64,000 nt of DNA from Schmidtea polychroa (taxonomy: Eukaryota): positions 77,850,397 to 77,914,396 of the forward strand of contig CM097887.1 of assembly GCA_044892525.1 (NCBI GenBank), read 5' to 3'. The notes under the pieces were generated by a model that searched no databases, was not told the DNA's origin, and worked only from the letters and a program-made list of their open reading frames with translations. Positions 6,171 to 60,684 of the stretch are shown one piece after another. Within the stretch, counting starts at the first letter, position 1. Each line of letters begins with the position of its first letter. The position numbers were made by a program, and so were the translations under genes.

Positions 6171-6294
6171 AGAATAAGAGAGGCTGACCCCTCATTCCAT
6201 CTGACTTACGAGCATGCAAGACGTAAAAAATTGAATTTTTCTAACATTTAATTTCATTGATTGATTTTATATATAAATTCTAAATATTACTATT

Positions 6295-12300: not shown

Positions 12301-12960
12301 TATGTAAGCATGTATTTCGTCGACGATATTAAGAAGTCGCTTTCTTTTTGGGTTTGACTTCAGTTAGAGCAGAAAATACAAATTCACAAAACCATGAAAA
12401 CGCAAATGGCAGAGGGATTTTAATTGTGTTTGAACTTGTCAAAGGATAACATTTTAAGAGAGAGCCAAAATTCGTCCAAGCTCTTTCCAGGAAATGCTAA
12501 TTGATGGGATTTGTCATTCTTGAAGTCGATGAGCTCTTCTTCCTCAGTTGAAAGATTTGTTGTTTCAAGCATCCCAAATGGATTGATCAACAGCCATATT
12601 CATCGACGACTGAAAGCGATAGGAAATAATGATGAAATTACGAATGGAGACCTGTCAGTGAGATGACAATGTCAGCAGCAAGTTTATTCTGAATGTGATT
12701 AAATGACAGAAGGAAAGCAGTCAAAGATACCCTTCGAGATTTTGCTCTTCCACAACATCAGCTTTTCATAAAATGACTTCAGTTTTGATGTTGATGTTAT
12801 AATATTTTCCGATGATACTTGAAGAATTCAATTTGTCGAACAAATCTGAGAGAAATTGAACTTTCAGCCACCAGATTTCGTCATGAAGAGGAAATTCTAA
12901 ATCTGCTTCCTCGGCCTCCAAAAACGAATAAGACGCATCAAAACTTTTCCTTTCAATAAA
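9399..12960 (-). mobile_element. hAT element (Buster/Charlie clade), 3' portion, interrupted by piggyBac
   Basis: TIR-like TAGTGATTCTCAAACT at 9399. Minus-strand transposase C-terminus at 12240-12960 (GKVLMRL, WWLKVQFLSDLFDKLN, NPFG, SLDEFWLSL, CEFVFSALTEVK), truncated 5' by the LTR-like unit. Confidence 0.8.
9551..12186 (+). mobile_element. Full-length piggyBac with degraded PGBD4-like transposase (~9907-11640)
   Basis: TTAA|CACGTTGGCTGC ... GCAGCCAACGTG|TTAA. Motifs MSQNRFQLLLRYIHF, VIDESMIAFRGR, QYIPGK, VDNYYTS, GTLRK and a C-terminal Cys-rich finger. Stops, frameshifts and a 31-bp tandem duplication at 10658-10719. Confidence 0.95.
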
Positions 12961-12987
12961 TATATTAACGAATCGCTCGAATTCGAT

Positions 12988-18154: not shown

Positions 18155-18793
18155 ATTACATCAATCTCTCGAAGAATGCGCTCTCATTGAACACGATCTA
18201 TCTAATACGCGGTTCCTAAAAAAATTACAGAAAATCCAATAAAAAGGCTTGGGTAACTGCTGAATTATTTTAAGAATGGTTTCACAAGTGTTTCGTCCCA
18301 GAGGTCCAGATTCACCTTGAAAAAAAGGCATGCCATTTAAAGTTTTGATAACACTCGACAATAATTGAACCATGCACAATTACTGCTTGCTGGAAAAATA
18401 TATGAAGTGAATGCGCTATAGATTTTCAAGGATTTCCAACTTCTGAAAATGATATTGAAAATATTGTTGCAATTAGCTATTAGGTTGATGGTGATGGTTT
18501 TGAAGATCTCCACCAAGAAGAAATTGAAGAAAAATTTAGGAGGAATGCGGAGACACTTACGAATGAAGAGTTGGTTTAACTTGTTGGTTCAGTTCCTGGT
18601 TCCAAAGATGACGATGAAGAAAATGACATAGTTAATGATTGGGATTTAAATAAATTAGGTGAATTGTTTCTTATGGTGAAACAAATAATTTCATTGTGGA
18701 AAATGATCCTTGAAAAGAACGAAGCCTCAATATTAAAAGAAAAGTTGAAAACGATTTTTTACCCTATCAAGAACTATTTAGCGAGATGATAAG
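18155..18793 (+). mobile_element. pogo/Tigger (TIGD1-like) transposase fragment, left of the Polinton insertion
   Basis: NKKAWVTAELF*EWFHKCFVPEV...KVLITLDNN; DGDGFEDLHQEEIEE...ETLTNEEL; ends ...QELFSEMIR at the TSD. Confidence 0.8.
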
Positions 18794-18899
18794 AGTAGAT
18801 GGATTGGGCACCGCTGGCACAGGGCACCGCTAGCACAGTACCCCCCTCCCCCCGTCGGTAAGATTTTCAAAAATATTCTAAGTCTAAAAGTACATTTTT

Positions 18900-19550
18900 T
18901 TTTCAAGGTCAAATTTAAACAAAGACATATGACTCATCAAGGTCATTGAAACAAAGACCATGAGTCATCCTATGACTCATCAAATTTTTCAAGGTCATTT
19001 AAACAAAGACCATGACTCATCCGATGACTCATCAAGGTCATTTTCAAGGTCATATGACTCATAATATGACTCATCAAGGTCCAAAAAATTTTCTCTGGGC
19101 CATTTAAACAAAGACCATGACTCATCAAGGTCATTTTCAAGGTTATATGACTCATAGTATGACTCATATTACCTTGAAAAATTTTTTCAAGGTCATATGA
19201 CTCATCCTATGACTCATCACGGTCATCGAAACAAAGGCCATGATTCATAGTATGACTCATATGACCTTGAAAATTTTTTTCAAGGTCATATGACTCATCC
19301 TATGACTCACCAAGGTCATTTTCAAGGTCATATGACTCATAGTATGACTCATTTGACCCTGAAAAATTTTTTCGAGGTCATATGACTCATCCTATGCCTC
19401 ATCAAGGTCATTCTCAAGGTCATATGACTCATCCGATGACTCATCAAAATTTTCCATGACTCATCAAGGTCATTTTCAAGGTCACATGACTCATCCAAGG
19501 TCATTCCCAAGGTCATATGAGTCATCGCGATGACTCATCAAGGTCATATT
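18900..19550. repeat. Subterminal array of ATGA(C/G)TCAT and TCAAGGTCA motifs (left arm)
   Basis: By manual count, ~23 ATGASTCAT and ~15 TCAAGGTCA in ~650 bp. Confidence 0.9.
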
Positions 19551-19702
19551 ATTATTTTTAAAAAATATTATTATTTTTATTATTATTTTTAAAAATATTA
19601 TTATTTTATTTTTAATTTTTTCAAAGTTCCCGCCAACGAAAATTAATAATCGATAGCTCATTTTAAAGCTCAATCCAAGACCTTTCGAATGAGCCATATA
19701 TC

Positions 19703-19756
<54 letters not shown>

Positions 19757-20299
19757 GTATTAATCTATATACACCGAGTCTATGTACTCTGAGTCTATCC
19801 GACAAAATATTTTGTCCCCCTATGGGTAATGCTCACAAGGGTACTGGTCACGCTCAACAAATCAACAAAACATACATTTATTTAAACAATAAAATAATGT
19901 AAAATTAACAAAGGTAAACTAAATATTGATGTACTACTATTCGCAGCAATATTGTTTGAAAACAAACGGCAATACAAAAGTACTCATAGATGACTCATTT
20001 ATTTTTTGAAGAAAGACAATGACGCACCCATGGGATATATTATTTATTACTATCAATAGTATTAATATTATTATTATTAATATTATTATTATTATTATTA
20101 TTATTATCATCAAGTTTTAATTACCAAGGTAATTTAAACAAAGACCATGACTCAGTCGCTGAATCATCAAGGTCGTTCTATTTTTAGTAACAAAGACATC
20201 TATTTTTAGTAACATTTTGAATATATTTTTAGTAACATTTTTGATCCGATCATTGATCCGATGACTCGCCAAGGTCATTCTATTTTTAGTAACAAAGAC

Positions 20300-21730
20300 A
20301 TCTATTTATGTTCCAGCGGTTTATTTTTGTTTTAATTATCGAATACGTAATAATTTAATTTTTTTTAAATTGTTAATTATATAATAATATTTTTATTTTT
20401 TGTTTTAATTATCGAATACGTAATAATTTAATTTTGTTTAAATCGTTGATTATATAATAATATTTTTATTTTTTGTTTTAATTATCGAATACGTAATAAT
20501 TTAATTTTGTTTAAATCGTTGATTATGTAATAATAACATGTTTTGTTTTAATTATCGATTACTCAATAATTTAATTTTGTTTAAATCGTTGATTATGAAA
20601 TATTTTTGGATTTAATTGTCGATTACGTAATAATTTAATTTATCATTATTATTGGGAAAGATATTACCGCTCGCGCGGAAAATGTTATTTTCAAAATTAG
20701 TATTTTCGAAGTTTTAATCAATATTATTATTATTATTATTATTATTATTAGTATTAATCTATATAGTCCGAGTTTATCCGACAAAATATTGTGTCCCCCT
20801 ATGTGTATTTGTAGAAAGGGTACTGGTCACATTCAACATGTCGCAAGGGTATTAATATTATTATTATTATTATTATTATAACATTAATATAACTTCATTA
20901 TTTTCAAGGTCATATTATTATTTTTCAAAATATTATTATTTTCAAGGTCATATTATTATTTTTCAAAATATTATTATTTTCAAGGTCATATTATTATTTT
21001 TCAAAATATTATTATATTTTTCAAGGTCATATTATTATTTTTCAAAATATTATTATATTTTTCAAGATCATATTATTATTTTTCAAAATATTATTATATT
21101 TTTCAAGATCATATTATTATTTTTCAAAATATTATTATTTTCAAGGTCATATTATTATTTTTCAAAATATTATTATTTTCAAGGTCATATTATTATTTTT
21201 CAAAATATTATTATATTTTTCAAGGTCATATTATTATTTTTCAAAATATTATTATTTTCAAGGTCATATTATTATTTTCAAGGTCATATTATTATTTTTC
21301 AAAATATTATTATTTCAAGGTCATATTATTATTTTATTTTAGTTTTGTTTAAATCGTTGATTATATGATAATATTTTTATTTTGGTTTTAATTATCGATT
21401 ACTTAATAATTTTTTATTTTTTTTTAATTATCGATTACTTAATAATTTAATATTGTTTAAATCGTTAATTATATAATAATATTTTTTTGTTTTAATTATC
21501 AATTATGTAATAATTTAATTTTGTTTAAATTGTTGATTGTATGATAATATTTTTATTTTTGTTTTAATTATCGATTACTTAATACCTTAATTTTGTTTAA
21601 ATCGTTGATTATGCAATAATAATTTTTGTTTAAATTATCAATTATGTAATAATTTAATTTTGTTTAAATCGTTGATTATATTATTTTTTTTGGTTTAATT
21701 ATCGATTACGCAATAATTTAATTTATCATT
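20300..21730. repeat. Minisatellite blocks in the left arm: ~73-bp unit (20300-20640, 21340-21730) and ~38-41-bp TCAAGGTCA-containing unit (20900-21330); mirrored at ~32770-34200
   Basis: GAATACG recurs at 20341, 20414 and 20487 (period 73). TCAAGGTCA recurs at 20942, 20980, 21021 and onward. Confidence 0.9.
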
Positions 21731-22272
21731 ATTATTGGGAAAGATATTAATGCCCGCGCGGAAGATGTTATTTTCAAAATTATTATTTNNNNNNNNNNNN
21801 NNNNNNNNNNNNNNNNNNNNNNNNNNNNNNNNNNNNNNNNNNNNNNNNNNNNNNNNNNNNNNNNNNNNNNNNNNNNNNNNNNNNNNNNNNNNNNNNNNNN
21901 NNNNNNNNNNNNNNNNNNNNNNNNNNGAACATTTTCATCAAATATTTTTCAAAGTATTATTTTCAAAGAATTATTTTCAAAGAATTATTATTATTATTTT
22001 TATTATTATTTGCAAAGTTCTAATTATTATTTTAATTTAGAAGTTTCATTATTATTATTTACTTAAATATTCATAAAACTTAATTTCTACGTCAATTACA
22101 TGATTTTCAACATTTTCATCATTTGCATGATTATTTTAATAATTTTCTACATTTTCAATATTTTCACGATTTTCAACATTTTCATGATTATTTCAGGAAC
22201 TTTTCATCGAATATTTTTCAAAGTATTATTTTCAAAGATTCATTTTCAAATTATTTTCAAAGTTTTTATCAA

Positions 22273-22327
<55 letters not shown>

Positions 22328-22804
22328 GTATAAAATGATGATTGCTTGGTAGCAGCATTTATTATTTAAAACAATAAAATGATAATTTAAGCCTTTTGCT
22401 GCAAATAATGTATTTAATGAAAGAATTTTCGACTATACGATAGTCCTTGTCAATCTATTATTATTATTATTATTATTATTGGTAAAGAAAAATCTAAAAT
22501 ATGGTTTACACGCACAACCCATCAACCATTATTATTATTATTATCAATATTAAAAACATAAAATATTTTTACACACACACACATGCACAATCCATTAAAC
22601 ATTATTATTATTAACGCAAATATTAGTGAAAAACCTAAAATATTTTTTACACGACCCATTAAACTTTATTATTATTATTATTATTATTGCAAATATTAGT
22701 CAAAAACATAAAATATTTTTACACACACACAACCCATTAACAATTATTATCAATATTAGTGAAAACCTAAAATATTTTCTACACACATATACAACCCTTT
22801 GAAC

Positions 22805-22843
<39 letters not shown>

Positions 22844-25800
22844 ATTAGTCAAAAACTTAAAATAATTTTTACACACTAAGTTATGGGGTAGAGAATTATT
22901 ATATGTTTGCAGTATTCTGTGTTTGCCTTTACAGGAAATTGTCAATAAGGAGTGATAATTTTATACATACATTCTATATACACATACCTTTTTAAAATGG
23001 ATGTATATACTCCTAGTCTATCCGACAAGATATTCTGTCCCCCTATGGGTATTACCAGCAAGGGTACTGGTCACATTCAACATGTCGCAAGGGTAAATTA
23101 ATTAAGGTTAGTAAATAAAACCTATCACACATACTATTTTTAATAATTATTTAAACTATAAAAATCAAGACAAGAGAGGACAAGGCAAAGTTTATGCATT
23201 TAGTATTGCCAGGTCTAATGAGCAGTGACCAAATATCTGTGCCTGAAAGACACGGTGGATATTTGTTCGCGTCCACAAGGGTCGTCTGTGCATCCCCCAA
23301 GTGGGGTCAAAAGAACCTGGGCATTATAGCTTTCCGTACGGAACATTACGCCTAGCATGGGTAGTCAACTACCAGCACATTCGAAACGTATAATTTCAAA
23401 ATACATGCGTCATTGGCACTATAACCAAATTAATTAATGTTTTCACTAACAACAATATATATTTACAGAGGCCTCCCACTAGTTGGATTACAACCGCCTA
23501 CCACGACGATCAGCTTGTAAATATATATTAATTAAGGGATAAAGAGGACCCACCCAACCCTTTTATATTTAATTTACAAATTTTTCTCGCTCTTCTGCTG
23601 GTAATCTATCTCAAAATTATCATCTCCATCGGGCCATTTGAAATACATCTTGCAAATTGGACGTATTTCTTAGTTTCTGATGCGGCGTCAACTATCATTG
23701 CTAAAATTTATATTGATTTAAAAGCAATTAACTTACATTATCTAACATTTTATCGTCACAGGCTTGATAAATTAGTCAACTGTTATTTGTGGTATACTTT
23801 TTCCATGTCATTTCCCACCATAAAACACAGATACCTAAATATAATATATATATTTTAAAGAATTAATTCATGTCTTACATTAATAATAATATTCTTCAGG
23901 TATGACGAGTACTTTACTTAATTGCTAAAACATCGATTTTTCCCATTTTTTTTGACATTCGTTGAAAGTTTACATAATTTAAGTCTGATAAGTAAACATT
24001 CATGTTGAAGGACACCCACAATCAGCTAATTCATTTAAGAAATCCGGAACTATAACTCCTTTAGTGTTTCACCATTTTGTCTGGTCATCTTCCCCATAAT
24101 CCAATAATTCATGTTTTAATAAGAAATCTCTAAATCCAGAACATAAGTCTTTTAGTGTTTCACTATTTTTTCTGGTTTATCTTCTTCATAATTATATAAT
24201 TCATTTATATAATTATATAATTCATTATATAATAATTAAAATATTGTAGTAAATTCTTTATATACTTACTTTATGGATACTAAAACGAAAGAAATAAAGT
24301 TATATGAAAAGTTTATTTAAATAATTTAAATTTAGTTATTTAAAAATATTTAAACAATTTAGTTATTTAAGCATATTTAAACATTAATATTATTATATAG
24401 TATAATTTTATATAATATTTAATATTATAATTTTATGTATTCTAAATTTATTAATAAATACAGTATAATTTTATATAATATTATAATTTTATGTACACTT
24501 ATATATCCTTCATTTAATTTTTTAAATTCAAAAATTTATAATGAAGATTCTTTGAATTAAAAAGTATTCTGTTAGTATTTCCAGGCAGAAAACAACGAAT
24601 TCAATAATTAAATCTTAATTTTCATGTTGTTAGGGTTGTGGCCAGAAGTTAATCGCCATCTAATCGTTTGTTCTCAATTTCGATCATTTTTGTTCAAAAC
24701 ATTCAGGTGAGTTGTTATCTGGAAAGTTTCTTTTAGCTCAGTTTTGTTAAAACACTCACGGTATTTTTGAGGGACGTGACACTGGAAATAAATTAACAAT
24801 GGGTGGTCATCCATACATGTTGTTGGTCTGAGCTGTCGATTTACTTTAGAAATAGGTATATTAAAAACATTTAAGTTATCATTCAGTAAAATAATATAGT
24901 ATTTTTTAGTTAATTTATAAATAACAGTATTTTGATATATCAATAAAGACCATATACTTCGAGTTCATCCGACAAAATATTCTGTCCCCCTATGGGTATT
25001 ACCAGCAAGGGTACTGGTCACATTCAACATGTCGCAAGGGTATAATAATCATTTAGAAATTCTTAGGTAATTTAGTGAGATGATCAGAAATTCGTGAATA
25101 TTTTAAATGTAACTTTACACTTATGTCGAGCGACTAATTTATTGGTTAACCTTTTAGACATTTAAAGCAAAAGGTAATTTATTCATCTAATGTTCGTTAC
25201 AATAGTTATTAATATGAGAAAAACATGGTCATTATTCATTGATAATTTTAAATTCTTTATCATTTGGAGTAAATTTGTTCGAGGCAAAAATATTTAAAGG
25301 AGTCATAATAGAAATATGGTTATCATTTAACCAAATAAGGTGCTTATTAGTTAAAAATACATGTTCATATAGGGTTATATTTCTTTTCTAATTTAATTAG
25401 ATGATCATTAGACGTAGTATATCTTTGCGAGAAATTTAAGATGTTTGAGTAACCAAAACATGGATATTTTGTGCGATAAATTTATGAATATTGGTTAATT
25501 TTGTTATTTTTAGTCATTTAAAATAATATTTAGCAAAGGTAATTTAGCAAAATATCATTTATCCATCCGATAACAATATTCCTTCAATAGATTAACTGAT
25601 ATTTAACCGATTTAATTTCTAGAAATCTAATTAAAATCATAAATTTCCTTCACTGATATCCTCACAATGAATAAAATAACTTCTTAAATAAACTAATTTA
25701 AAGAAATAACCTTTGATATCATTTATCTCTAAAGATTTCAAATATTTCATTGTCAAAACCAAGTAAATAGATTATTAACCCTAAACGACTTAATAAAACA

Positions 25801-28800
25801 GTGGATAATTAATAAAAACTTGTTCTAAAACATAAATCTAAATTACTGTGCAATAACATTCATCACGACCTAATAAACCTCTAAGACGATATAAGTTCAC
25901 TGGAATTATTATTAATTCATAGCTAAATACTGACTATTTCCTTTGAAAATTTGATATTTTACCAATAAGAACATTGTCGATTTAAATAGAGATTTAATTG
26001 TTAAAAACATTCTTCCATTGAAATAATTTAGTAGCTAAATTCAAAGAGTTCACTAAAAGATCAAAATTCATTAAAATAAATATTTAATCACATGTATCAT
26101 CAAATACCTAACTAGAGATGATAATATTTCATTGATTGATCATAATTCTTCATCGATTCAACTAATTATAACCATTATAACATGATATATCTTTCAAACT
26201 AAATTTCGGTATATTTTACAATAATTTTCAAGTAAATTTCAAATATATCATCATCGTGAAAACATTATCTGGTTTCAACTTTAGATTTTCAATATTTTAA
26301 AGTTCATCAATGTGTAAATATTCTTAGAAAAATATATGAAAAAAATTATATAGTCAAATTCAATATCATTACAAAGTCATCATCGTCAAATTTATCCTAT
26401 CACTTGATTATTAACATTAAAAATTAATTTTTATTTAAAATTTAAAAACAAGTCAATAAAATATAGCAAATTATCAAGAAATTAATTAAATTTATCTTAG
26501 AATTAACACTAAACCTTAAATTTTTAAATATTCTTTCAATTAACATGAAATTCACAAAAAATGTTAGTAAAATCCCGCTAACTCTAAAAAATTACCAATG
26601 AATTTAATGCCAAATAATAACCAAAAATTTGCCTAAATAAAATCATTAAAACACAACAGTACCTTTACGACCAGTACCCTTACGACCAATACCCTTACAA
26701 GCAGTACCCATAGAGGGAGAAAATATGTTGTCGGATAAACTCAGAGTATATATAATAAAACGAATTAACAATAACTCTATCAAATTGAATCAGTCAAATT
26801 ATCACAAATTTGATAAAAAATCTTATTCTAAAATGGTAAGCAGCGTAAAATCGAAAGATAATTTTAATAACACAGAGATAAAAATTAACAATATTATTCT
26901 CAGGTGGTAAGAACCATCATTATTCTATGATTAATTAATAATGAAATTCAAAAAAGTGAAAATAAGTGTTCAAATTATTCATTAATGGAAAGTAAATGTA
27001 AATATAGCGAGAAGTGGCATGTATAAGATTGAAATATATTAATTGAATTTATTTAAAATTATTTCATGAAATTCATAAAAATTTATAAAAATGATCACTT
27101 TTATAAAAAATATTTAATAAAATTTTCAAAGAAATATTTGTTGAGAGGATTAGTGGAAAATCTTGGGGCTATAAGTGATGAGGATATATAAAATTATTTC
27201 TAATATATGAGTTACTAACGAATTAAAATATTTTAATAATGTGATAAAAATTTATTTTGATAAAGTATTTAATCCACAAATGAAAACATACATAACAATT
27301 GGTATTTGACTGAGCAATTATGATAAATTCATATTTTAAATTTTGATTAACTCCTTTAATATTGAATTAATAATTATTATATTTACTATTTTACATTAAA
27401 TATTTCAAAAACAAATATTCTAAAAGATAATTTAAGATACATTACTCTTTTCAAACAACATGATCTCTCAAAGTTAAGAAGGAAACAAAGTGTGTCAGAT
27501 CACATACCTAGCATTAACTTTACTTAAATATATGAAAACACCAAGTAAGCAATGATAATAGAGTGATAACAGACTCAAAAATAAAATATTCTTACCACCT
27601 GAGAATAATATTGTTAATTTTTATCTCTGTGTTATTAAAATTATCTTTCGATTTTACGCTGCTTACCATTTTAGAATAAGATTTTTTATCAAATTTGTGA
27701 TAATTTGACTGATTCAATTTGATAGAGTTATTGTTAATTCGTTTTATTATATATACTCTGAGTTTATCCGACAACATATTTTCTCCCTCTATGGGTACTG
27801 CTTGTAAGGGTATTGGTCGTAAGGGTACTGGTCGTAAAGGTACTGTTGTGTTTTAATGATTTTATTTAGGCAAATTTTTGGTTATTATTTGGCATTAAAT
27901 TCATTGGTAATTTTTTAGAGTTAGCGGGATTTTGCTAACATTTTTTGTGAATTTCATGTTAATTGAAAGAATATTTAAAAATTTAAGGTTTAGTGTTAAT
28001 TCTAAGATAAATTTAATTAATTTCTTGATAATTTGCTATATTTTATTGACTTGTTTTTAAATTTTAAATAAAAATTAATTTTTAATGTTAATAATCAAGT
28101 GATAGGATAAATTTGATGATGATGACTTTGTAATGATATTGAATTTGACTATATAATTTTTTTCATATATTTTTCTAAGAATATTTACACATTGATGAAC
28201 TTTAAAATATTGAAAATCTAAAGTTGAAACCAGGTAATGTTTTCACGATGATGATATATTTGAAATTTACTTGAAAATTATTGTAAAATATACCGAAATT
28301 TAGTTTGAAAGATATATCATGTTATAATGGTTATAATTAGTTGAATCGATGAAGAATTATGATCAATCAATGAAATATTATCATCTCTAGTTAGGTATTT
28401 GATGATACATGTGATTAAATATTTATTTTAATGAATTTTGATCTTTTAGTGAACTCTTTGAATTTAGCTACTAAATTATTTCAATGGAAGAATGTTTTTA
28501 ACAATTAAATCTCTATTTAAATCGACAATGTTCTTATTGGTAAAATATCAAATTTTCAAAGGAAATAGTCAGTATTTAGCTATGAATTAATAATAATTCC
28601 AGTGAACTTATATCGTCTTAGAGGTTTATTAGGTCGTGATGAATGTTATTGCACAGTAATTTAGATTTATGTTTTAGAACAAGTTTTTATTAATTATCCA
28701 CTGTTTTATTAAGTCGTTTAGGGTTAATAATCTATTTACTTGGTTTTGACAATGAAATATTTGAAATCTTTAGAGATAAATGATATCAAAGGTTATTTCT

Positions 28801-31659
28801 TTAAATTAGTTTATTTAAGAAGTTATTTTATTCATTGTGAGGATATCAGTGAAGGAAATTTATGATTTTAATTAGATTTCTAGAAATTAAATCGGTTAAA
28901 TATCAGTTAATCTATTGAAGGAATATTGTTATCGGATGGATAAATGATATTTTGCTAAATTACCTTTGCTAAATATTATTTTAAATGACTAAAAATAACA
29001 AAATTAACCAATATTCATAAATTTATCGCACAAAATATCCATGTTTTGGTTACTCAAACATCTTAAATTTCTCGCAAAGATATACTACGTCTAATGATCA
29101 TCTAATTAAATTAGAAAAGAAATATAACCCTATATGAACATGTATTTTTAACTAATAAGCACCTTATTTGGTTAAATGATAACCATATTTCTATTATGAC
29201 TCCTTTAAATATTTTTGCCTCGAACAAATTTACTCCAAATGATAAAGAATTTAAAATTATCAATGAATAATGACCATGTTTTTCTCATATTAATAACTAT
29301 TGTAACGAACATTAGATGAATAAATTACCTTTTGCTTTAAATGTCTAAAAGGTTAACCAATAAATTAGTCGCTCGACATAAGTGTAAAGTTACATTTAAA
29401 ATATTCACGAATTTCTGATCATCTCACTAAATTACCTAAGAATTTCTAAATGATTATTATACCCTTGCGACATGTTGAATGTGACCAGTACCCTTGCTGG
29501 TAATACCCATAGGGGGACAGAATATTTTGTCGGATGAACTCGAAGTATATGGTCTTTATTGATATATCAAAATACTGTTATTTATAAATTAACTAAAAAA
29601 TACTATATTATTTTACTGAATGATAACTTAAATGTTTTTAATATACCTATTTCTAAAGTAAATCGACAGCTCAGACCAACAACATGTATGGATGACCACC
29701 CATTGTTAATTTATTTCCAGTGTCACGTCCCTCAAAAATACCGTGAGTGTTTTAACAAAACTGAGCTAAAAGAAACTTTCCAGATAACAACTCACCTGAA
29801 TGTTTTGAACAAAAATGATCGAAATTGAGAACAAACGATTAGATGGCGATTAACTTCTGGCCACAACCCTAACAACATGAAAATTAAGATTTAATTATTG
29901 AATTCGTTGTTTTCTGCCTGGAAATACTAACAGAATACTTTTTAATTCAAAGAATCTTCATTATAAATTTTTGAATTTAAAAAATTAAATGAAGGATATA
30001 TAAGTGTACATAAAATTATAATATTATATAAAATTATACTGTATTTATTAATAAATTTAGAATACATAAAATTATAATATTATAATATTATATAAAATTA
30101 TACTATATAATAATATTAATGTTTAAATATGCTTAAATAACTAAATTGTTTAAATATTTTTAAATAACTAAATTTAAATTATTTAAATAAACTTTTCATA
30201 TAACTTTATTTCTTTTGTTTTAGTATCCATAAAGTAAGTATATAAAGAATTTACTACAATATTTTAATTATTATATAATGAATTATATAATTATATAAAT
30301 GAATTATATAATTATGAAGAAGATAAACCAGAAAAAATAGTGAAACACTAAAAGACTTATGTTCTGGATTTAGAGATTTCTTATTAAAACATGAATTATT
30401 GGATTATGGGGAAGATGACCAGACAAAATGGTGAAACACTAAAGGAGTTATAGTTCCGGATTTCTTAAATGAATTAGCTGATTGTGGGTGTCCTTCAACA
30501 TGAATGTTTACTTATCAGACTTAAATTATGTAAACTTTCAACGAATGTCAAAAAAAATGGGAAAAATCGATGTTTTAGCAATTAAGTAAAGTACTCGTCA
30601 TACCTGAAGAATATTATTATTAATGTAAGACATGAATTAATTCTTTAAAATATATATATTATATTTAGGTATCTGTGTTTTATGGTGGGAAATGACATGG
30701 AAAAAGTATACCACAAATAACAGTTGACTAATTTATCAAGCCTGTGACGATAAAATGTTAGATAATGTAAGTTAATTGCTTTTAAATCAATATAAATTTT
30801 AGCAATGATAGTTGACGCCGCATCAGAAACTAAGAAATACGTCCAATTTGCAAGATGTATTTCAAATGGCCCGATGGAGATGATAATTTTGAGATAGATT
30901 ACCAGCAGAAGAGCGAGAAAAATTTGTAAATTAAATATAAAAGGGTTGGGTGGGTCCTCTTTATCCCTTAATTAATATATATTTACAAGCTGATCGTCGT
31001 GGTAGGCGGTTGTAATCCAACTAGTGGGAGGCCTCTGTAAATATATATTGTTGTTAGTGAAAACATTAATTAATTTGGTTATAGTGCCAATGACGCATGT
31101 ATTTTGAAATTATACGTTTCGAATGTGCTGGTAGTTGACTACCCATGCTAGGCGTAATGTTCCGTACGGAAAGCTATAATGCCCAGGTTCTTTTGACCCC
31201 ACTTGGGGGATGCACAGACGACCCTTGTGGACGCGAACAAATATCCACCGTGTCTTTCAGGCACAGATATTTGGTCACTGCTCATTAGACCTGGCAATAC
31301 TAAATGCATAAACTTTGCCTTGTCCTCTCTTGTCTTGATTTTTATAGTTTAAATAATTATTAAAAATAGTATGTGTGATAGGTTTTATTTACTAACCTTA
31401 ATTAATTTACCCTTGCGACATGTTGAATGTGACCAGTACCCTTGCTGGTAATACCCATAGGGGGACAGAATATCTTGTCGGATAGACTAGGAGTATATAC
31501 ATCCATTTTAAAAAGGTATGTGTATATAGAATGTATGTATAAAATTATCACTCCTTATTGACAATTTCCTGTAAAGGCAAACACAGAATACTGCAAACAT
31601 ATAATAATTCTCTACCCCATAACTTAGTGTGTAAAAATTATTTTAAGTTTTTGACTAAT

Positions 31660-31701
<42 letters not shown>

Positions 31702-32178
31702 GTTCAAAGGGTTGTATATGTGTGTAGAAAATATTTTAGGTTTTCACTAATATTGATAATAATTGTTAATGGGTTGTGTGTGTGTAAAAATATTTTATGT
31801 TTTTGACTAATATTTGCAATAATAATAATAATAATAATAAAGTTTAATGGGTCGTGTAAAAAATATTTTAGGTTTTTCACTAATATTTGCGTTAATAATA
31901 ATAATGTTTAATGGATTGTGCATGTGTGTGTGTGTAAAAATATTTTATGTTTTTAATATTGATAATAATAATAATAATGGTTGATGGGTTGTGCGTGTAA
32001 ACCATATTTTAGATTTTTCTTTACCAATAATAATAATAATAATAATAATAGATTGACAAGGACTATCGTATAGTCGAAAATTCTTTCATTAAATACATTA
32101 TTTGCAGCAAAAGGCTTAAATTATCATTTTATTGTTTTAAATAATAAATGCTGCTACCAAGCAATCATCATTTTATAC

Positions 32179-32230
<52 letters not shown>

Positions 32231-33767
32231 TTGATAAAAACTTTGAAAATAATTTGAAAATGAATCTTTGAAAATAATACTTTGAAAAATATTCGATGAA
32301 AAGTTCCTGAAATAATCATGAAAATGTTGAAAATCGTGAAAATATTGAAAATGTAGAAAATTATTAAAATAATCATGCAAATGATGAAAATGTTGAAAAT
32401 CATGTAATTGACGTAGAAATTAAGTTTTATGAATATTTAAGTAAATAATAATAATGAAACTTCTAAATTAAAATAATAATTAGAACTTTGCAAATAATAA
32501 TAAAAATAATAATAATAATTCTTTGAAAATAATTCTTTGAAAATAATACTTTGAAAAATATTTGATGAAAATGTTCNNNNNNNNNNNNNNNNNNNNNNNN
32601 NNNNNNNNNNNNNNNNNNNNNNNNNNNNNNNNNNNNNNNNNNNNNNNNNNNNNNNNNNNNNNNNNNNNNNNNNNNNNNNNNNNNNNNNNNNNNNNNNNNN
32701 NNNNNNNNNNNNNNNNNNNNNNNNNNNNNAAATAATAATTTTGAAAATAACATCTTCCGCGCGGGCATTAATATCTTTCCCAATAATAATGATAAATTAA
32801 ATTATTGCGTAATCGATAATTAAACCAAAAAAAATAATATAATCAACGATTTAAACAAAATTAAATTATTACATAATTGATAATTTAAACAAAAATTATT
32901 ATTGCATAATCAACGATTTAAACAAAATTAAGGTATTAAGTAATCGATAATTAAAACAAAAATAAAAATATTATCATACAATCAACAATTTAAACAAAAT
33001 TAAATTATTACATAATTGATAATTAAAACAAAAAAATATTATTATATAATTAACGATTTAAACAATATTAAATTATTAAGTAATCGATAATTAAAAAAAA
33101 ATAAAAAATTATTAAGTAATCGATAATTAAAACCAAAATAAAAATATTATCATATAATCAACGATTTAAACAAAACTAAAATAAAATAATAATATGACCT
33201 TGAAATAATAATATTTTGAAAAATAATAATATGACCTTGAAAATAATAATATGACCTTGAAAATAATAATATTTTGAAAAATAATAATATGACCTTGAAA
33301 AATATAATAATATTTTGAAAAATAATAATATGACCTTGAAAATAATAATATTTTGAAAAAAAATAATATGACCTTGAAAATAATAATATTTTGAAAAATA
33401 ATAATATGATCTTGAAAAATATAATAATATTTTGAAAAATAATAATATGATCTTGAAAAATATAATAATATTTTGAAAAATAATAATATGACCTTGAAAA
33501 ATATAATAATATTTTGAAAAATAATAATATGACCTTGAAAATAATAATATTTTGAAAAATAATAATATGACCTTGAAAATAATAATATTTTGAAAAATAA
33601 TAATATGACCTTGAAAATAATGAAGTTATATTAATGTTATAATAATAATAATAATAATAATATTAATACCCTTGCGACATGTTGAATGTGACCAGTACCC
33701 TTTCTACAAATACACATAGGGGGACACAATATTTTGTCGGATAAACTCGGACTATATAGATTAATAC

Positions 33768-33811
<44 letters not shown>

Positions 33812-35039
33812 TTGATTAAAACTTCGAAAATACTAATTTTGAAAATAACATTTTCCGCGCGAGCGGTAATATCTTTCCCAATAATAATGATAAATTAAAT
33901 TATTACGTAATCGACAATTAAATCCAAAAATATTTCATAATCAACGATTTAAACAAAATTAAATTATTGAGTAATCGATAATTAAAACAAAACATGTTAT
34001 TATTACATAATCAACGATTTAAACAAAATTAAATTATTACGTATTCGATAATTAAAACAAAAAATAAAAATATTATTATATAATCAACGATTTAAACAAA
34101 ATTAAATTATTACGTATTCGATAATTAAAACAAAAAATAAAAATATTATTATATAATTAACAATTTAAACAAAATTAAATTATTACGTATTCGATAATTA
34201 AAACAAAAATAAACCGCTGGAACAAAAATAGATGTCTTTGTTACTAAAAATAGAATGACCTTGGCGAGTCATCGGATCAATGATCGGATCAAAAATGTTA
34301 CTAAAAATATATTCAAAATGTTACTAAAAATAGATGTCTTTGTTACTAAAAATAGAACGACCTTGATGATTCAGCGACTGAGTCATGGTCTTTGTTTAAA
34401 TTACCTTGGTAATTAAAACTTGATGATAATAATAATAATAATAATAATATTAATAATAATAATATTAATACTATTGATAGTAATAAATAATATATCCCAT
34501 GGGTGCGTCATTGTCTTTCTTCAAAAAATAAATGAGTCATCTATGAGTACTTTTGTATTGCCGTTTGTTTTCAAACAATATTGCTGCGAATAGTAGTACA
34601 TCAATATTTAGTTTACCTTTGTTAATTTTACATTATTTTATTGTTTAAATAAATGTATGTTTTGTTGATTTGTTGAGCGTGACCAGTACCCTTGTGAGCA
34701 TTACCCATAGGGGGACAAAATATTTTGTCGGATAGACTCAGAGTATATAGACTNNNNNNNNNNNNNNNNNNNNNNNNNNNNNNNNNNNNNNNNNNNNNNN
34801 NNNNNNNNNNNNNNNNNNNNNNNNNNNNNNNNNNNNNNNNNNNNNNNNNNNNNNNNNNNNNNNNNNNNNNNNNNNNNNNNNNNNNNNNNNNNNNNNNNNN
34901 NTCGAAAGGTCTTGGATTGAGCTTTAAAATGAGCTATCAATTATTAATTTTCGTTGGCGGGAACTTTGAAAAAATTAAAAATAAAATAATAATATTTTTA
35001 AAAATAATAATAAAAATAATAATATTTTTTAAAAATAAT

Positions 35040-35585
35040 AATATGACCTTGATGAGTCATCGCGATGACTCATATGACCTTGGGAATGACCTTGGATGAG
35101 TCATGTGACCTTGAAAATGACCTTGATGAGTCATAGGATGACTCAGATGACCTTGAAAATGACCTTGAAAATTTTGATGAGTCATCGGGTGAGTCATATG
35201 ACCTTGAAAAAATTTTTCAAGGTCAAATGAGTCATACTATGAGTCATGGTCTTTGTTTCAATGACCTTGATGAGGCATAGGATGAGTCATATGACCTTGA
35301 AAAAATTTTCAAGGCCATATGAGTCATACTATGAGTCATATGACCTTGAAAATGACCTTGATGAGTCATGGTCTTTGTTTAAATGACCTTGAGAAAATTT
35401 TTTTGCCCTGGATGAGTCATATTATGAGTCATATGACCTTGAAAATGACCTTGATGAGTCATCGGATGAGTCATGGTCTTTGTTTAAATGACCTTGAAAA
35501 TTTGATGAGTCATAGGATGACTCATGGTCTTTGTTTCAATGACCTTGATGAGTCATATGTCTTTGTTTAAATTTGACCTTGAAAA
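35040..35585. repeat. Subterminal array of ATGA(C/G)TCAT and TGACCTTGA motifs (right arm)
   Basis: Mirror of 18900-19550 with a different unit order and count. Confidence 0.9.
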
Positions 35586-35701
35586 AAAATGTACTTTTAG
35601 ACTTAGAATATTTTTGAAAATCTTACCGACGGGGGGAGGGGGGGGGGGTACTGTGCTAGCGGTGCCCTGTGCCAGCGGTGCCCAATCCATCTACTGATAA
35701 G

Positions 35702-40729: not shown

Positions 40730-41028
40730 TTATTTTGTTAAATTCAATTGATAAATAGAAAATTCTCTGATTGATCCGACCTTTAATATGAACGGACCTT
40801 CCTGTTTTGGCGAATATGTTGACACTCGAATATTATAGATGCCGCCAGACATTTTACTCAATTCAAGGACCACAAATCCACGGCTGTAATTATTATTGAA
40901 TCAATTTCATCCTTTAATCATTTTTACTATATTACCGATAATCTCCAACTGATTTTTTTGTGAAATTATTAGGATTTGATGTGTTGTATTGGTCGATAGC
41001 TTCTATATCGAATCCTATGGCAAACTCT
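40730..41028 (-). CDS. CAPN7: Calpain-7 exons 14-15 (C-terminus)
   Basis: REFAIGFD...KKSVGDYR | RGFVVLEL...[21 protein letters not shown]...TK*, with a 52-nt intron at 40884-40935. Confidence 0.92.
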
Positions 41029-41361
41029 CTGAAGCAAAAAAAAATTGTCCAAAATCAGTTAAATATAAAAACCACTATAATCTGTCACGTAAAGATCAAG
41101 AAGAAATTCAGAATTTACAAATTTATTTATTTAAAAATCAATTAATTAATTATTTTTATCAGTTTCCTTTATCTTCACTTCAAACCAGTGCTCGAAGTGA
41201 GGCGGGATAGCCGGGATATTATCCCGGCATTGATTATGTAGGCGGAATTGCATCCCGGCACTTCATTTCATATAATCTATAGGTTTATCCCGGTACTTAT
41301 TTCATTTTATAGGCACACAAATACTGCAATTAAGGTCACACATAGTACATCCATATATGTA

Positions 41362-41398
<37 letters not shown>

Positions 41399-44300
41399 TT
41401 TATTCTCTATTCTCTATTCAATTAAGAATTTCCCAAGCAGCAGTAATGGATAGGTAGGTATTTGTTGGACACCCCCAACTGAAAATTTCTGCATAAAAGC
41501 CTGGAATCCCGGGTGCCACAGCATGCCTATCCCGGCACATATTTTGTTCCACTTCGAGCACTGCTTCAAACTATAAATCAATATTTATATCTTTTAACTA
41601 AATACTACTAATAGATCAATGCTGTATATTTATGATAAATTTCTTTGGCGATCTCCGGTTTAATATAGAAATTATAGATAATATAGATAGATAATAATTA
41701 TAGATAGATAACTTATACCAGTAATTTCTGTATATTTGCAAGCAGTTAAATTGTTAAATAGATCACGTGCTTGTTAGAAAAGTTTAAGAATATTTTCAAT
41801 CATAAACGCATGTACATAAATGTTTTCATGTATATTTTAATGTTCTAGCAACTTAACACTAGATTTACTGACATTAGAAGACAATTTGACGGGTGTCCGT
41901 AAAAATAGATATATACAACACATTTCCCCTAAGCGAAAATGGCGACAAAGAAAAGGATAGTGATATATTCGCGTATCATTGTGTCATTAATAATCAGCAT
42001 AAAAAAAATTCGAAAAAATAATATTTCTTTTGTATATTTAATTTTAAAAAGTGAATCCGTCAAATTGACGGGTTCCGTAAATCTAGTGTTAAAAATACAT
42101 TTCATATACAAGATTGTAAATATGTGTTATTTCAACATAGTTTATTCATTTTCACCAAAATATAATAATTTTATCACGTGCTCCAAACTAATATGACCCG
42201 AGGGTTTCATGATTTTAAGCTTGAACTCATTAGAGTATTTTTGAGAAATAGGAACATAAAACGCGTGTTAATTGGATTTTCTAACCATGGTGAAATTTGA
42301 GAATATTTATCCTATTTCAATATTACTTAACATTCTGAAGCTTTATTCCCATAAAATTGGAAAAAATATATATTGTAGATATAAAATTCAAATAATTTTG
42401 GACGGCGGAAAGCTGATTGAATAGCCCTGAAATATTGTATAAGTATATAGCAGTGTTGTCCAACTGAAAATCGCACACGGCACACTAAATAAACATAAAA
42501 TCGCTCACAGCACTTTCAAAAAGAAACTAAAATATTTTATAAGAAAAAAACAATACACTTGAAAAATCGTTCACTTTGAATATTTATTAATGAGATACTT
42601 GAACGTTTTATTTTGCGGATACAAGCTCAGAACGCGGCTCGTTGCTTGATAGGCATACTCTTAATTCACTGTCAATCATCTTTAATCTTTCACGATTTTT
42701 TGATTTTATTTCTGTGAGGGGAGAAAATCCTAATTCGCAGAGGTATGATGATCCAACTGGCATCAACAAATGAACTGCATATTTTGTCAGTTGAGGAAAT
42801 TCGGAAATCGCACTTATAATCAAAAAAATTGCGTCGTAAAACAAGAAAATTGCATTTTAAACAAAAATAAATTGCATTTATTAAAAGTTTTAAAATAATT
42901 ATTATAATTTTTAATTTCTAATTATAGGCAAACTCTTATTAGAAATTTTCGATTACAATTCATTTCTAGCTACCATCACGAAGAAAAAAAAACAAGTGAT
43001 GCATTTATTTTTATATACAATTCAAAAGTACTAAAACCTTAATAATTTTAAATTTTTACATATTTTTTCGAGGCACACAATGGACAACAATGGTATATAG
43101 TATAAGAGATTTCAATACACAATTATATTTGATAGGTTATTACTAAGTTATTAAATTCGTGAGATTTTAAAGCTAGGAATGCTCCCGGCTTAGAGATTTG
43201 ACCGAATTATAATTTATAAGACAAAACATAAATGGTACAATTAGAAATAGCAAAACCTAGCCAATTGTTTGAGTCCATTACTTACATTATTAAATAAGGT
43301 GCTAAAAACACTTTTTTTATAAATGAATTACAAAATTTTTATTAATTTACAAGTTTTTCTTTTAATTAAAATAATTAATTAATTTTCAAACTCAACGTTT
43401 TTCATACAAATAGTTGAATTTGTTTTAAAAAAATCACTTTAATTGTATTGGAAAACTCCTGAAATATATTTTTTGAAAAGTAATTGATTATTTATAATTA
43501 AATTAGGAAAAATGTGTAATTTGTTTATTAAATCTAATACGTTTATAATTTTTTCTATAATTTTTTAATTAAAATTATTTTTTATGAATAAAATATTTAA
43601 ATTTGAAACGATATTGATCATAAACAATATCTTTTCATATTTAAATATGGTACCATACAAAAATAGCAGCCTGTGACATTATTGGTTGGCTCTCTCCATA
43701 TCATATGAACAGTAAAGGCACCTGTAGTGATTTGCCAGGTATTGTATTTTTTTATTTCTTAAAAATAAAAAAAATGTATTAAAACATTTGTTTTAATATT
43801 TAGTTTTTGTTTGAATGATATTTTAAATTTAACTCATTGTTAAATTGTTTGGATTAAATTTTTTAAGATCGTTCATTTTATTAACTGTATTAACTGTTAC
43901 AATAATATACCAGGCATTTCATCTACTTCTATTAGGAATTGTTGGATTTTGCAGTTGTGTGCCAATGCAATGATAATATAATTCATTTAATTATCGGTAT
44001 AAGTTTAATGATTGTTATTATCATGTTATTGGCCTCATTGTTCGTCTGCTTCATTATTAAAGAAACTTCTCCAGACAAGATAGTTTGTGATGGAAAAAAA
44101 AAGTTGAAAAAGATGGAAAAAAAGATGATATCCGTAAAAGTTCAATCGAATTCGCTGAAGATAAAAATGAATCAAACGAACTTTTGACAATAATACTTCA
44201 ATATTCATTCAATCAGATCCCATTAATAATTATCCGAATAATGAAAATATCACTCGTCTATCTCGAACTAATTCCCACGAACATTTAATGTTGTTAGCTG

Positions 44301-47300
44301 CAACTGCAGTTATCTCTAGTTTTTCCAATAACGATAATTTCTCGTCAGCAAACGAGGAACTAAACACAACAGTATGGAACGACCTTTTTGATTAAGCCAG
44401 TTCCGGTGGTTAGAAGCATAAGTATTGCAACAAATATGAGGCTCCCAGGTTCTATTTTGGTATTTAATATTGCACACAAAATAACAGTGATAAGCATAAA
44501 TAATCACTGGATACACAGAACATTTCTGTATGGAAAATGTCGCTTTACCACACACATAACAAAAGTTATCAGCACTATTTATACACTTTCGAGGCATTTC
44601 GAGGTAATGAATGCTGAAACGAAAAACTCAAAAGCTTGCCTGTGCCTGATTCATAACAGAAGATATCTAATCAGTAAATGTGATGACTCAGCACAAAATT
44701 GTGGTAAATGTGATGATACAGCACAGAATTTGTTCAAGTACGACTGAAACGAAGATATACACAATGTTTAACCACTTAACTCTTTTTAAAAATGAAAATT
44801 TGTGGTAAAAAAAACTATAATTTTTATATTGCATTTTCTGATAGATTATGATGCATATAGATGGAATATTTCCCAAAATGAAAAAACATGTTTATTTGAA
44901 AAATTATAACATATTTAATTTTTTTTTTAAATCATCAGAGAATAGACGTAAATATTATAGACGCAGAGTTACGGTATTCCCCATAGACTCAATGGTATAA
45001 AGTGCGTAAAATTACGTCACAAATTCTATTTCAACCACATTTTTTGACGTAAATTTACGTCGATTCTCGTTAAGTGGTTAAGAAAAAAGCAGTTTCTAAA
45101 ACTTACTGTATTATTAAAACTAGAGCTAAACAAAATTTTTAGTGTCATTCTTTTTCAGCACAGCAAAAATAGTTATAATTTACTGATTTCATCATAGATA
45201 TATTTTGGCTGTTTACCAGTGAAATTATTGAAAATAAATGCTAAGTTTTTTAAATTATAAAAATAGTGTAATTTATTTATTAGATCGATCATATAAAATT
45301 AATTTTTCAGCCTACCTGCTTATGCCAATATGATTTTTGAGTGTCGCTTTTTAGATCATAATGAATTTTAGATAATATTTATTATTAAATCAACAATGAA
45401 ATTTTTTAATTTATTTTACATCTCAGCTTTTTCGATAAAATAAATAAATTTTATTCACAAAAACTATTCTGACTATTTCTTATTTCCCCACTTGTAAATT
45501 TTGTTTATTATTTATTAATATTATTTACCGAGGTGCTTTCAATTCAATCATAATACGATTGTCCACTTGACTGTTTGGAATTTTAATTTGATAAAGTGGA
45601 TTGTTGTAATAAGTTTCCTTGTTATTTTGACATCCTCCAGCTGTCAAACTGGTCCAATTTCCTGAAACCTAATAATAGCGAAATGACATTACGTAAAGCG
45701 AATAAGATCTCAACTGTTTTATAGTGTTTATAAGGATCGGTTAATTTTACCAAGGAAACAGGACATGAGCAAAATACTCTCAATGTAAAGCAAATACTGT
45801 TGTTTTTCTCGTATTGGGTAACAACAAGTATATATTCACTGTTGTCATTTTCAGATGGTTTGTGGATAATTTTGACAAGATAATGAGGAGTATTGATGCG
45901 GATTCCGTCGATAATTGGCGGTGGATCGTTAGGATAAAATATCTTCGATTTTTCTCTCTCGATTCCTTTATAGACAATCAGTGCAATAAATTCTTTATTG
46001 TTTGCAAAATCATCCTGGAAAAGAAATGTTAAAAGAAAATTTAAAAGAAAGTTTCAAATCAAATTGAAAGCGGATGAAAATTAGATAAGAAAATGTGACC
46101 CCAGGTAAAAAACAGATGATATTAAAGAAAAAGCTTACTTTGTCTGTGATATGTCTAGTTAGAAGAATCCATAATGAAGCTTCATTTCGAGGATTTTGTA
46201 ACTTCAATCGATACTGGGGGTTCTCAGAAATTGAGAATATATCTTTTTTAGGCCCTTCTGCAGCAATCCAATCATCGTGGACACAAGTAGTATAGGGAAA
46301 TAATTTCGGATTCCAATTCACATAGATAACATCAAAGAAATGTTGCAAAGAATCATAATCAATCCAAAATACACCGTTGTCAACTGCTTGTGCAGTGGAC
46401 AAATCGAAATTTAAAGCTTTCTGTAATGCCGGAGTCCAATTTTGTGAGTCATTATCAGAAAACTTTCCTTTCCAACGTAGATGACTCCAGGGATTTTTAA
46501 GTAGGAAAAGTCTTTGATTCTGAAAGTATCTTTTTTATAACAAAAGATTTTCAATTATATCATAATTTCCGACAGTTTTTATAAAATATGATTATTATTT
46601 ATAGAGCAAATTAATTCCTCCAAAAAGTTATTATTATATAAAAATATTAAAAAATTTAATTATGTAGAAAATTATTTCAACTTGAAATGATTTCATTGAA
46701 AAGGTTTATTTTTCAGCTATAAATTTATCAAAAATTACATTGATTTCTCTGATATCGAGCATTGCATATGCATGAGTTTGAACCAATCCGGCCCGGTCGG
46801 CTTCTGCTTCATCTAAATTACCCGTGGCCACCGTAATCAAGCAATTTCCTTTGTGGAAATGATCGTAAAGCTTTTTAAATTCTTTATCCGCTTTAAACTT
46901 TATAGGATCGTTTCTAATTATTGGAATCCTTTCTGGAATCCAACCCGTAAGTGCATGGAGATCAATATTCTAAAAATTTTATTATTATTAATATCGTTCA
47001 ATTTCGGTTTGTGTGTGGTAGTTATTTGGCTTTATCTGTTGGGTGCACATGTTTTGGTGCTGTCGAGATCATTTTGTATTTGAGTAAATTCAATTAGTGG
47101 CTGAAAAAAACGTTTTGATGAGTGTATTTATTTTCCTTAATTTTCGAAGTATTACTTAAACCCAAATGACTCAAATAATGTTTGAAAAATCCAATGTTAC
47201 TGTTATGTATGACGCTATCCAAAATGGAATGTCGCTTCAGGATTCCGGAGATGGTATACCGCACACTGCCAAAATATGAAGGATATCCTCTACCTCATGT

Positions 47301-59300: not shown

Positions 59301-60634
59301 TAACTAGCAGATTTTATAAAATTGAACTACGAGATAATTTAATTTCACATATATTTTCTGTAGAAAATATTAAAAATATCAAATACAAAAATCAATAAAA
59401 TTAAAAAATCAATTGCAAATTTAAGAACAATCGATATTAATTGTGAAAAGTTATATTACTAGCAAACAATATTGTTTTGAATAAATTAATAAAATATGAA
59501 AATATAATTCAAACGATTTTTTCAAAAAATTCATTTTTTAAAGCAGGGGTGCTCTGTGAGACATTGTTCAAATTAAAAGAATATTTATTATTAAAATCCG
59601 TAATATATCAAAAACATCGGTATATTAGCACTTTATCTTCAAGCTCTTTTTAATAAATACAATGGAAAAAAATCAGTGGTGAAATTGGAAAAAAAGTAAT
59701 AAATGAAGAGTTAAAATTAATAATTGAAGCGAACATTGCATTTCTGTTATTTTGGGTCGAAATAAAAATAAAGATTTAAAAAAATTAAAATTATTAAGTT
59801 ACTTAATTTTTCTAAAATATGGTAAAATAATTCAATAATAACACAAACGCTGGATAAATTTGATACGCAACTAAGAATTAAATCTATTAAATTACGATCG
59901 ATAAATATTGCAATATAAAATAAATACTAACAATATTGTTTAATTTATTTCAAAACATTTAACACTCAAATGAATTTTACACCTTATTTATGAAATCATA
60001 CGCGGAAAAATCATTTTTCTTTAATTAAATATTCAAACGAACGAATAGGTTTCATTTTTTCCTTAGGAAAATTTTAATTTTCAGATGAATCTTGTTTAAT
60101 CTATACAATAAAAAGTTAAAAATACATGGCAATGATTTAATTATAAGAAAGCTCCAATCAAACATTCGTTTCACGATATATTTCGGCAGTTATTATTAAT
60201 TAAGGCTGGCAAAAAGTTGGAAAAAGTGCGCCAGTTATCCGCCCACTCGACATGCGGGTAACCGAATACCCGCTCACACCACAATCTTGATATGAAGTAG
60301 CATTGACCTGTAACATCATGTACTTTGTTATTGCAGTATAACATAGATAACAGCAAGCGATTAGCGTGCATAGTGCAGAACAACAGTAGCCAACAACTGA
60401 TACACAAATCTAATAAACTTTGTTTCTTTGGATAATTGCTAATTGTTACCATTTTGGCTACTATTTTCACTGTTTTGATTAAAATGTTTTATTATTTCGA
60501 ATTTGAATCATAAACAGAACGAACGGGTAGTCGATTTCTGATTTAGATACCCGAGTAAGATCCGACGGTCGGTAACCCGGGTTACCGTTGACAGCCTTAT
60601 TATCAATTACTTTATTATTATTATTATTATTATG

Positions 60635-60684
<50 letters not shown>

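Follow-up and report, generated by a model that had tools for sequence, protein, structure and literature searches.

According to the accessible part of one survey, Mavericks/Polintons are marked by a 6-bp target-site duplication and AGT/ACT-type ends (PMC8097293); in vertebrates they measure 12.7-24.6 kb, carry terminal inverted repeats (TIRs) of 46-1,447 bp, and end in the terminal motif (AGT)2//(ACT)2 or (AG)3//(CT)3 (PMC8097293). Cis-regions of viruses and transposons that carry arrays of host-factor sites are already known. To our knowledge, there is essentially no test of how Polintons/Mavericks are switched on or of which host factors act at their ends. Baculovirus homologous regions (hrs) act as enhancers and replication origins (excerpts of PMC13513840 and PMC3230853), and the strength of an hr enhancer correlates with its CRE/TRE count (PMC13513840, in the part consulted, citing Landais 2006). 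Adenovirus, a relative with a linear, protein-primed replicon, has packaging repeats at nt 220-400, which overlap the E1A enhancer, and the same left-end region is bound by viral proteins together with host factors including COUP-TF and Oct-1 (PMC5033970, in its accessible sections). In flatworms, the promoter of the schistosome gene meg-8.3 harbors an FTZ-F1 response element that lies in a repeat and is bound in ChIP (PMC8673669, in the portion available). It resembles the arrays described below in being a flatworm NR5A site within repeated DNA, and differs from them in being a single site serving a host gene rather than an array at the end of an element.

The window, i.e. the whole stretch of 64,000 nucleotides analysed here, contains a foldback element of 16,902 bp, made up of two inverted arms (~8.1 kb each) around a 675-bp spacer (Table 1). 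The element is of the Polinton/Maverick type by its ends and its 6-bp duplication, and is known here without any intact gene. Its likeness to this class consists of a perfect 6-bp target duplication (GATAAG on both sides), an AGT-type start and ACT-type end, long terminal inverted repeats, and a length of 16.9 kb, which is within the range of vertebrate Mavericks. It departs from the class in that it lacks the core genes, in that its 8.1-kb arms far exceed TIRs of 46-1,447 bp, in that its ends AGTAGA...TCTACT agree with (AGT)2 at 5 of 6 bases, and in its dense arrays of host-factor sites. Such arrays were not found described for Polintons in the literature searched, and no case of AP-1 and NR5A sites packed together at the ends of a Polinton-type element was found in the open full-text literature, a scope that excludes subscription journals and Repbase.

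Table 1. Position, strand and main characteristics of the features identified in the window.
Feature	Positions	Strand	Content or basis
Gene-less foldback element, Polinton/Maverick-type ends AGTAG...CTACT	18794..35695	.	Self-BLAST and end alignment
Target-site duplication GATAAG, left copy	18788..18793	+	Sequence
Target-site duplication GATAAG, right copy	35696..35701	+	Sequence
Left arm of inverted repeat	18794..26913	+	~8.1 kb, one assembly gap
Right arm of inverted repeat	27589..35695	-	Two assembly gaps
Central spacer	26914..27588	.	Unique, 675 bp
GC-rich terminal tip	18794..18837	+	16-bp direct repeat; contig depth, joints
Left subterminal array	18903..19546	+	26 AP-1-type slots (23 perfect), 24 NR5A-type slots with at most 1 mismatch (15 perfect), 5 AAACAAAGA
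Right subterminal array	35044..35582	-	21 AP-1-type slots (18 perfect), 21 NR5A-type (17 perfect), 5 AAACAAAGA
Degenerate relic of array modules	20125..20300	+	Mirror near 34240-34400
Inner satellite	20897..21335	+	38-41-bp AT-rich units, 12 TCAAGGTCA slots (10 perfect)
Mirror copy of inner satellite	33183..33621	-	10 of 12 slots perfect
Host calpain-7 gene (context)	40750..62737	-	3' end at about 40750

No intact ORF was found in the foldback element, and none of the six frames of one arm plus spacer (26900-31500, with X at stops) matched Pfam. Genes of autonomous Polintons (pPolB, integrase, ATPase, protease, capsid) were likewise absent among the ORFs and Pfam frames of the element. A 55-aa decayed ORF-like piece had no relatives among 1.84 billion representatives, and a further homologue search with decayed ORF-like pieces retained 0 of 1759 candidates. 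No RNA data set was listed as containing the interior of the element. Decayed ORF-like stretches are seen in the arms at 30310-30960 (+) and 27850-29300 (+), and are mirrored on the left arm; the former is apparently split, as judged by eye, by two short GT-AG introns of ~36-45 bp, while the latter has a leucine-rich look.

The insertion is young, the inner arms being 99.9% identical and arm-to-arm substitutions outside the array amounting to 0.08-0.7%. Excision of the element in silico yields one continuous reading frame across the insertion site, so that the element sits within a decayed transposon frame, one that we take to resemble a pogo/Tigger-type remnant. The possibility that the whole palindrome is an assembly artefact is countered by the target-site duplication at both ends, by the restored frame of the flanks, and by a public contig of run X1 that spans the left junction (18408-18818). 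The assembly gaps sit at mirrored positions, and arm identity could therefore be partly an assembly effect.

The subterminal arrays are positioned 110-750 bp inside both ends of the element. An earlier note on this DNA had reported about 23 ATGA(C/G)TCAT and about 15 TCAAGGTCA in ~650 bp, and a recount of 18900-19550 gave 23 of the former, and 14 plus 1 inverted of the latter; the mirror array that it had described at 35040-35585 proved to hold 18 ATGA(C/G)TCAT and 16 plus 1 inverted TCAAGGTCA, the right array being ~105 bp shorter than the left one. The enrichment is borne out by 2000 dinucleotide shuffles of the left array, in which ATGA(C/G)TCAT and TCAAGGTCA occurred with means of 0.04 and 0.03 and a maximum of 2, and the shorter TGA(C/G)TCA is itself clustered far above chance (24 in 650 bp). 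Within the window, ATGASTCAT occurs 43 times in the element versus once in the other 47 kb, and TCAAGGTCA, on either strand, 52 times versus twice. A third module, AAACAAAGA, absent from the earlier note, is present five times in each array. Together the three modules (AP-1, NR5A, AAACAAAGA) span 486 of 658 bp of array and form 8 kinds of junction whose spacing is almost constant, among them doublets of AP-1 and doublets of NR5A, both with a 12-bp period, and AP-1/NR5A pairs with a one-base overlap; this variety of junctions at fixed spacing argues against simple amplification of one unit.

The AP-1 consensus is TGA(C/G)TCA, and the NR5A-type consensus is YCAAGGYCR, which allows a last-base A-to-G; the AAACAAAGA module may resemble a TCF/Sox site. 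By exact matches, the ends of the element carry putative AP-1-type and NR5A/FTZ-F1-type sites, in agreement with the motif identity proposed previously. Among the NR5A variants that are one base off, only CCAAGGTCA was found more than once in each arm. ERR prefers T at the base where CCAAGGTCA differs, and ERR is less likely to be the sole reader of the arrays because CCAAGGTCA is the repeated variant. The flatworm FTZ-F1 of S. mansoni binds TCAAGGTCA, CCAAGGTCA and TCAAGGTTA in EMSA, within other flanks (PMC8673669, S4 Table); that the variant repeated in both arms is bound by the Schistosoma protein like TCAAGGTCA itself speaks for constraint. An NR5A2 transcript is listed for a planarian (PMC12312329, in the part seen). 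One AP-1 variant that breaks the site, ATGCCTCAT, occurs once in each arm.

Public contigs aligned to 18300-19130 covered 228 of the 644 bp of the left array, and their summed depth is used for order of magnitude only and is not a copy number. In run X1, this depth is ~194 over the flank and 10^5-10^6 as soon as the element begins; similar depth steps mark the start of the element in runs X5 and X14, the step spans three to four orders of magnitude in X1 and X14, and it was put at ~2,800-fold at one place. Run X11, which may be RNA, was left out of the analysis, as contigs do not show expression. In run X1, 41+15 contigs exit the tip into unrelated flanks (agreement 0.42-0.45), and low-agreement loose ends are seen at 18793/18794 in runs X1 and X14. 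The element belongs to a dispersed mobile family with many copies in different flanks, and, from the depth step at its start, this family probably has hundreds to thousands of ends. The terminal tip is common to many family members and to a second species label, run X14, for which the summed depth is 1.5 million over the tip and up to 0.48 million over the array but drops to 4-6 thousand over the spacer between them. Many contig joints link the terminal 20-45 bp straight to the array (they run from tip positions 18813-18838), the spacer between being skipped or replaced. One 393-letter contig of run X5 fits the flank up to 18793 and continues with 37 letters unlike the element, which may hint at an empty insertion site in another sample.

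We consider that the arrays are a candidate host-factor enhancer or origin helper that would serve the element, comparable to baculovirus hrs or adenovirus ends, and we assign this reading a probability of roughly 0.55. It is built on the position of the arrays, the identity of their motifs, the high copy number of the family, and the contrast between family and private variation that is detailed below; a point against it is that this element has no genes to enhance. The arrays might also be a neutral minisatellite, in which slippage and template switching close to the end of the element have multiplied and rearranged two 9-mers, one of them quasi-palindromic, that have GTCAT in common. Any likeness to AP-1 and NR5A sites would then be incidental, and the apparent conservation of cores would reflect homogenisation. 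We regard this alternative as unlikely, and the variation within the arrays bears on it in both directions.

The earlier note had stated that cores are preserved while flanks vary. This holds among paralogous units and among the displayed family variants, but fails between the two arms and in the inner satellite. Between the arms, the array shows 23 substitutions over 539 aligned bases (4.3%, versus the 0.08-0.7% found elsewhere in the arms) in addition to indels of whole units, as the neutral alternative would have it, and the substitutions are equally frequent in cores (17/416) and linkers (6/123; Fisher p = 0.8). Thirteen of the 23 differences break a site, where neutrality predicts 55%: this copy's own cores mutate at the neutral rate. 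The picture among family members is different. Variants were scored when displayed at 5% or more of the depth in run X1 or X5, the four places at which this copy itself departs being excluded. Of the eight retained, six fall in linkers, one is a C/G flip at the symmetric centre of the AP-1 site, and one is a last-base A-to-G of the NR5A site, i.e. they spare the cores or fall on degenerate positions of known motifs, contrary to what a neutral repeat would show. None of the eight breaks a site, versus 55% expected (p = 0.002, or p = 0.017 if the A-to-G is scored as a break), a count that refers to the best-supported rows only within 228 bp of one array (29 rows, including 22 of 36 places for X1, lie outside the displayed set) and to events that are not independent, as 1353 of 17335 X1 contigs fit two places and paralogous units are thereby mixed. 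Compared with the private differences between arms (13/23), the absence of breaks among family variants (0/8) yields a Fisher p of 0.01. Moreover, the broken NR5A sites of this copy at 19082 and 19096-19100 (four places) are intact in 84-99% of the family depth.

That common variants spare the sites and private ones do not fits selection during multiplication of the element, and is unlike the prediction from host selection at this locus. Our reading is one of probable constraint on the sites at the level of the family, followed by neutral decay once a copy is inserted. Two further observations are difficult for the neutral alternative, namely that the 3-bp linkers of the AP-1 doublets vary in sequence (four sequences) and not in length, and that the array is kept where the neighbouring spacer has been lost.

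The inner satellite weighs on the neutral side. As the earlier note had indicated, it holds more TCAAGGTCA, with 10 perfect sites in 12 slots in each arm. Since its unit corresponds to the sequence at the inner edge of the main array, the satellite derives from amplification of that edge rather than from an independent origin and lends no independent support for constraint. The sole substitution among its 12 units falls in the core (TCAAGATCA, in 2 of 12 units and in both arms), and a satellite drawn from the array edge thus tolerates a broken core; this break, together with ATGCCTCAT in both arms, argues against constraint. The element also has several other satellites without AP-1 or NR5A motifs. 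AT-rich satellites with units of 67-73 bp, located at 20320-20641, 21338-21724 and 22500-22860 and at their mirrors, lack both AP-1 and NR5A sites and share a core, ATCGAT/TACGTA, that recurs in them.

A conserved module of ~95 bp, with the core ATCCGACAA...CCCCCTATG...AAGGGTACTGGTC, is present five times per arm (10 matches versus 0 expected), at 19775-19865, 20760-20855, 23005-23097, 24955-25045 and 26655-26750 and at the right-arm mirrors. It adjoins the ORF-like stretches that have decayed, and might serve as an internal promoter or terminator or else mark where a small nested element ends.

If the arrays do serve the element, they would be modular, fast-turning-over cis parts of its ends, composed of putative host bZIP (AP-1/ATF type) and NR5A (FTZ-F1) sites and perhaps of a third, TCF/Sox-type module. 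Host factors would load on the arrays and open chromatin at the ends of the element; the early genes of autonomous helper Polintons might thereby be switched on, or the ends be made accessible for excision and protein-primed replication, or both. Gene-less foldback copies would retain their arrays by riding on the enzymes of the helper, selection would keep the sites intact as family members are copied, and the sites of an inserted copy would decay neutrally.

The family-level constraint would fit equally well if the repeats were recognised by proteins that the autonomous helper encodes, such as its integrase, its terminal protein/polymerase complex or its packaging machinery. Such a role would agree with the position of the arrays, which recalls that of the adenovirus packaging repeats near the left end (PMC5033970, in its accessible sections), and with their retention in a gene-less copy. 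We nevertheless hold it to be quite unlikely, as there are two 9-mers, each of which is the site of a known eukaryotic factor, with variants placed where those factors tolerate them, and as this gene-less copy yielded no bZIP or nuclear-receptor-like protein of its own, the helper genes lying outside this scope.

As regards the two viral systems to which a host-factor role would relate the arrays, the comparison shows both likenesses and differences. Hrs share with them, as far as the consulted parts of the sources describe hrs, a tandem, non-coding organisation in which bZIP (CRE/TRE) sites are clustered; they differ in being internal to a circular genome and in having a 30-bp imperfect palindrome bound by the viral IE1, whereas the arrays are subterminal in a linear element integrated in an animal chromosome and have no 30-bp IE1-type palindrome. 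The adenovirus left end is alike in belonging to a related linear, protein-primed replicon with host-factor-bound repeats 100-700 bp from the end. According to the portions of the literature available, it is unlike in that its A-repeats are AT-rich and restricted to one end, and in that COUP-TF binding did not track packaging, while the element has AP-1 plus NR5A consensus sites at both ends and at a far higher density.

A scan of viral contigs for the mixed motif pattern returned 11 loci, ten of which had a single match and one of which, L138, had repeated matches. The latter array consists of 17 ATGACTCA(T/C) and 18 (G/C)CAAGGTCA in intergenic tandem units of 29-31 bp, each of which combines one AP-1 site and one CAAGGTCA site of receptor type (L138:3001-3650). 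By gene content, the contig is a baculovirus (Pfam LEF-11, PP31, ubiquitin, FGF and SOD around the array), and the array is hr-like by position and form, with no hr annotation seen. It has no BLAST similarity to the element, and the first base of its receptor-like motif is G, not T/C, in 17 of 18 copies. The same motif pair thus recurs in an unrelated class of viral cis-elements, which the neutral alternative would not lead one to expect; the baculovirus parallel rests on this one case. No literature linking FTZ-F1 to baculovirus homologous regions was found in the open full texts searched. We tentatively raise the idea, which we regard as doubtful, that a flatworm Polinton-type family has converged with a baculovirus on an AP-1 plus FTZ-F1 array, and that this array serves the family as a switch, gated by injury and by nuclear receptors, that sets off its excision or replication.

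In metagenome contigs, the mixed pattern was found at at least 120 loci, and among the matches listed none had BLAST similarity to the element and 3 had four or more copies of both motifs within 700 bp. Tandem repeats rich in CAAGGTCA are frequent in these contigs, as the neutral alternative would predict, and clusters of receptor half-sites alone are accordingly weak evidence. Three metagenome repeats (L114, L122 and L092), whose source is probably invertebrate, mix CAAGGTCA with TGA(C/G)TCA at a density far below that of the array in the window. A 20-base word of the array gave 0 matches in metagenome contigs, and a 19-base word gave 4 single matches and 0 arrays in viral contigs. The triple AP-1 pattern was present at 8 viral loci, in short repeats of 3-11 sites with no NR5A motif. 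In a giant-virus MAG (L007:651-683 and 1584-1616; L010:3001-3033), triplets of ATGA(C/G)TCAT at 12-bp spacing, the period of the AP-1 doublets in the window, are located at the starts of repeated genes; they may be coding Met-Thr-His repeats.

The arrays point to two factor families as candidates and indicate where to look for them, in animals for which RNAi and wounding are standard experimental tools. Loading of host factors on the arrays, if it occurs, would couple gene-less satellites and their helpers to the stress signalling of the host, and would imply a large, hidden stock of AP-1/NR5A sites in repeats, a kind of DNA that is usually set aside in chromatin studies. If the gated switch exists, gene-less satellites would be mobilised on wounding of the host, and the ~40 AP-1 and ~50 NR5A perfect sites per copy, amounting to tens of thousands across the family, could titrate AP-1/NR5A factors or seed wound-responsive chromatin genome-wide. 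Should the arrays be neutral, they would be a warning against reading motif-dense repeats as enhancers.

The 3' end of calpain-7 lies at about 40750, 5 kb from the element and its right array, as the earlier note had observed. Its suggestion of an action on this gene, by which the arrays would be a host-co-opted wound/nuclear-receptor enhancer for calpain-7 or other neighbours at this locus, is very improbable, for although the sites at this distance are dense and perfect, some fish regeneration enhancers need AP-1 motifs (PMC8019671, part seen) and one co-option of Polinton TIRs is on record from C. elegans (PMC11414722, part seen), the gene runs from 62737 to about 40750 (-), which places its promoter at least 27 kb from the nearer array, and the insertion is not old, fixed and constrained, but young (by the identity of its arms), located in a transposon remnant, possibly absent from another sample (the X5 contig), and without constraint on the cores of this copy. 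In a quick tree of 52 rows picked from 120 homologues, the calpain-7 of this DNA is sister to that of 8 parasitic flatworms (SH-aLRT 99), which makes the host a flatworm that falls outside the parasitic clade.

An inverted copy of the last exon of calpain-7 (167 bp, 99% identical; 52277-52443 versus 40784-40950) sits in the gene's own intron, within a transposon remnant. Such remnants are dense at 1-18000, 37300-38320, 48389-49200 and 53900-56760, and include hAT (BED finger and dimerisation domain, by Pfam), Tc1-like (DDE_3), a GIY-YIG ORF and, by eye, piggyBac-like types. An intron-less fragment resembling fatty acyl-CoA reductase (54947-55747) lies in a transposon inside a calpain-7 intron.
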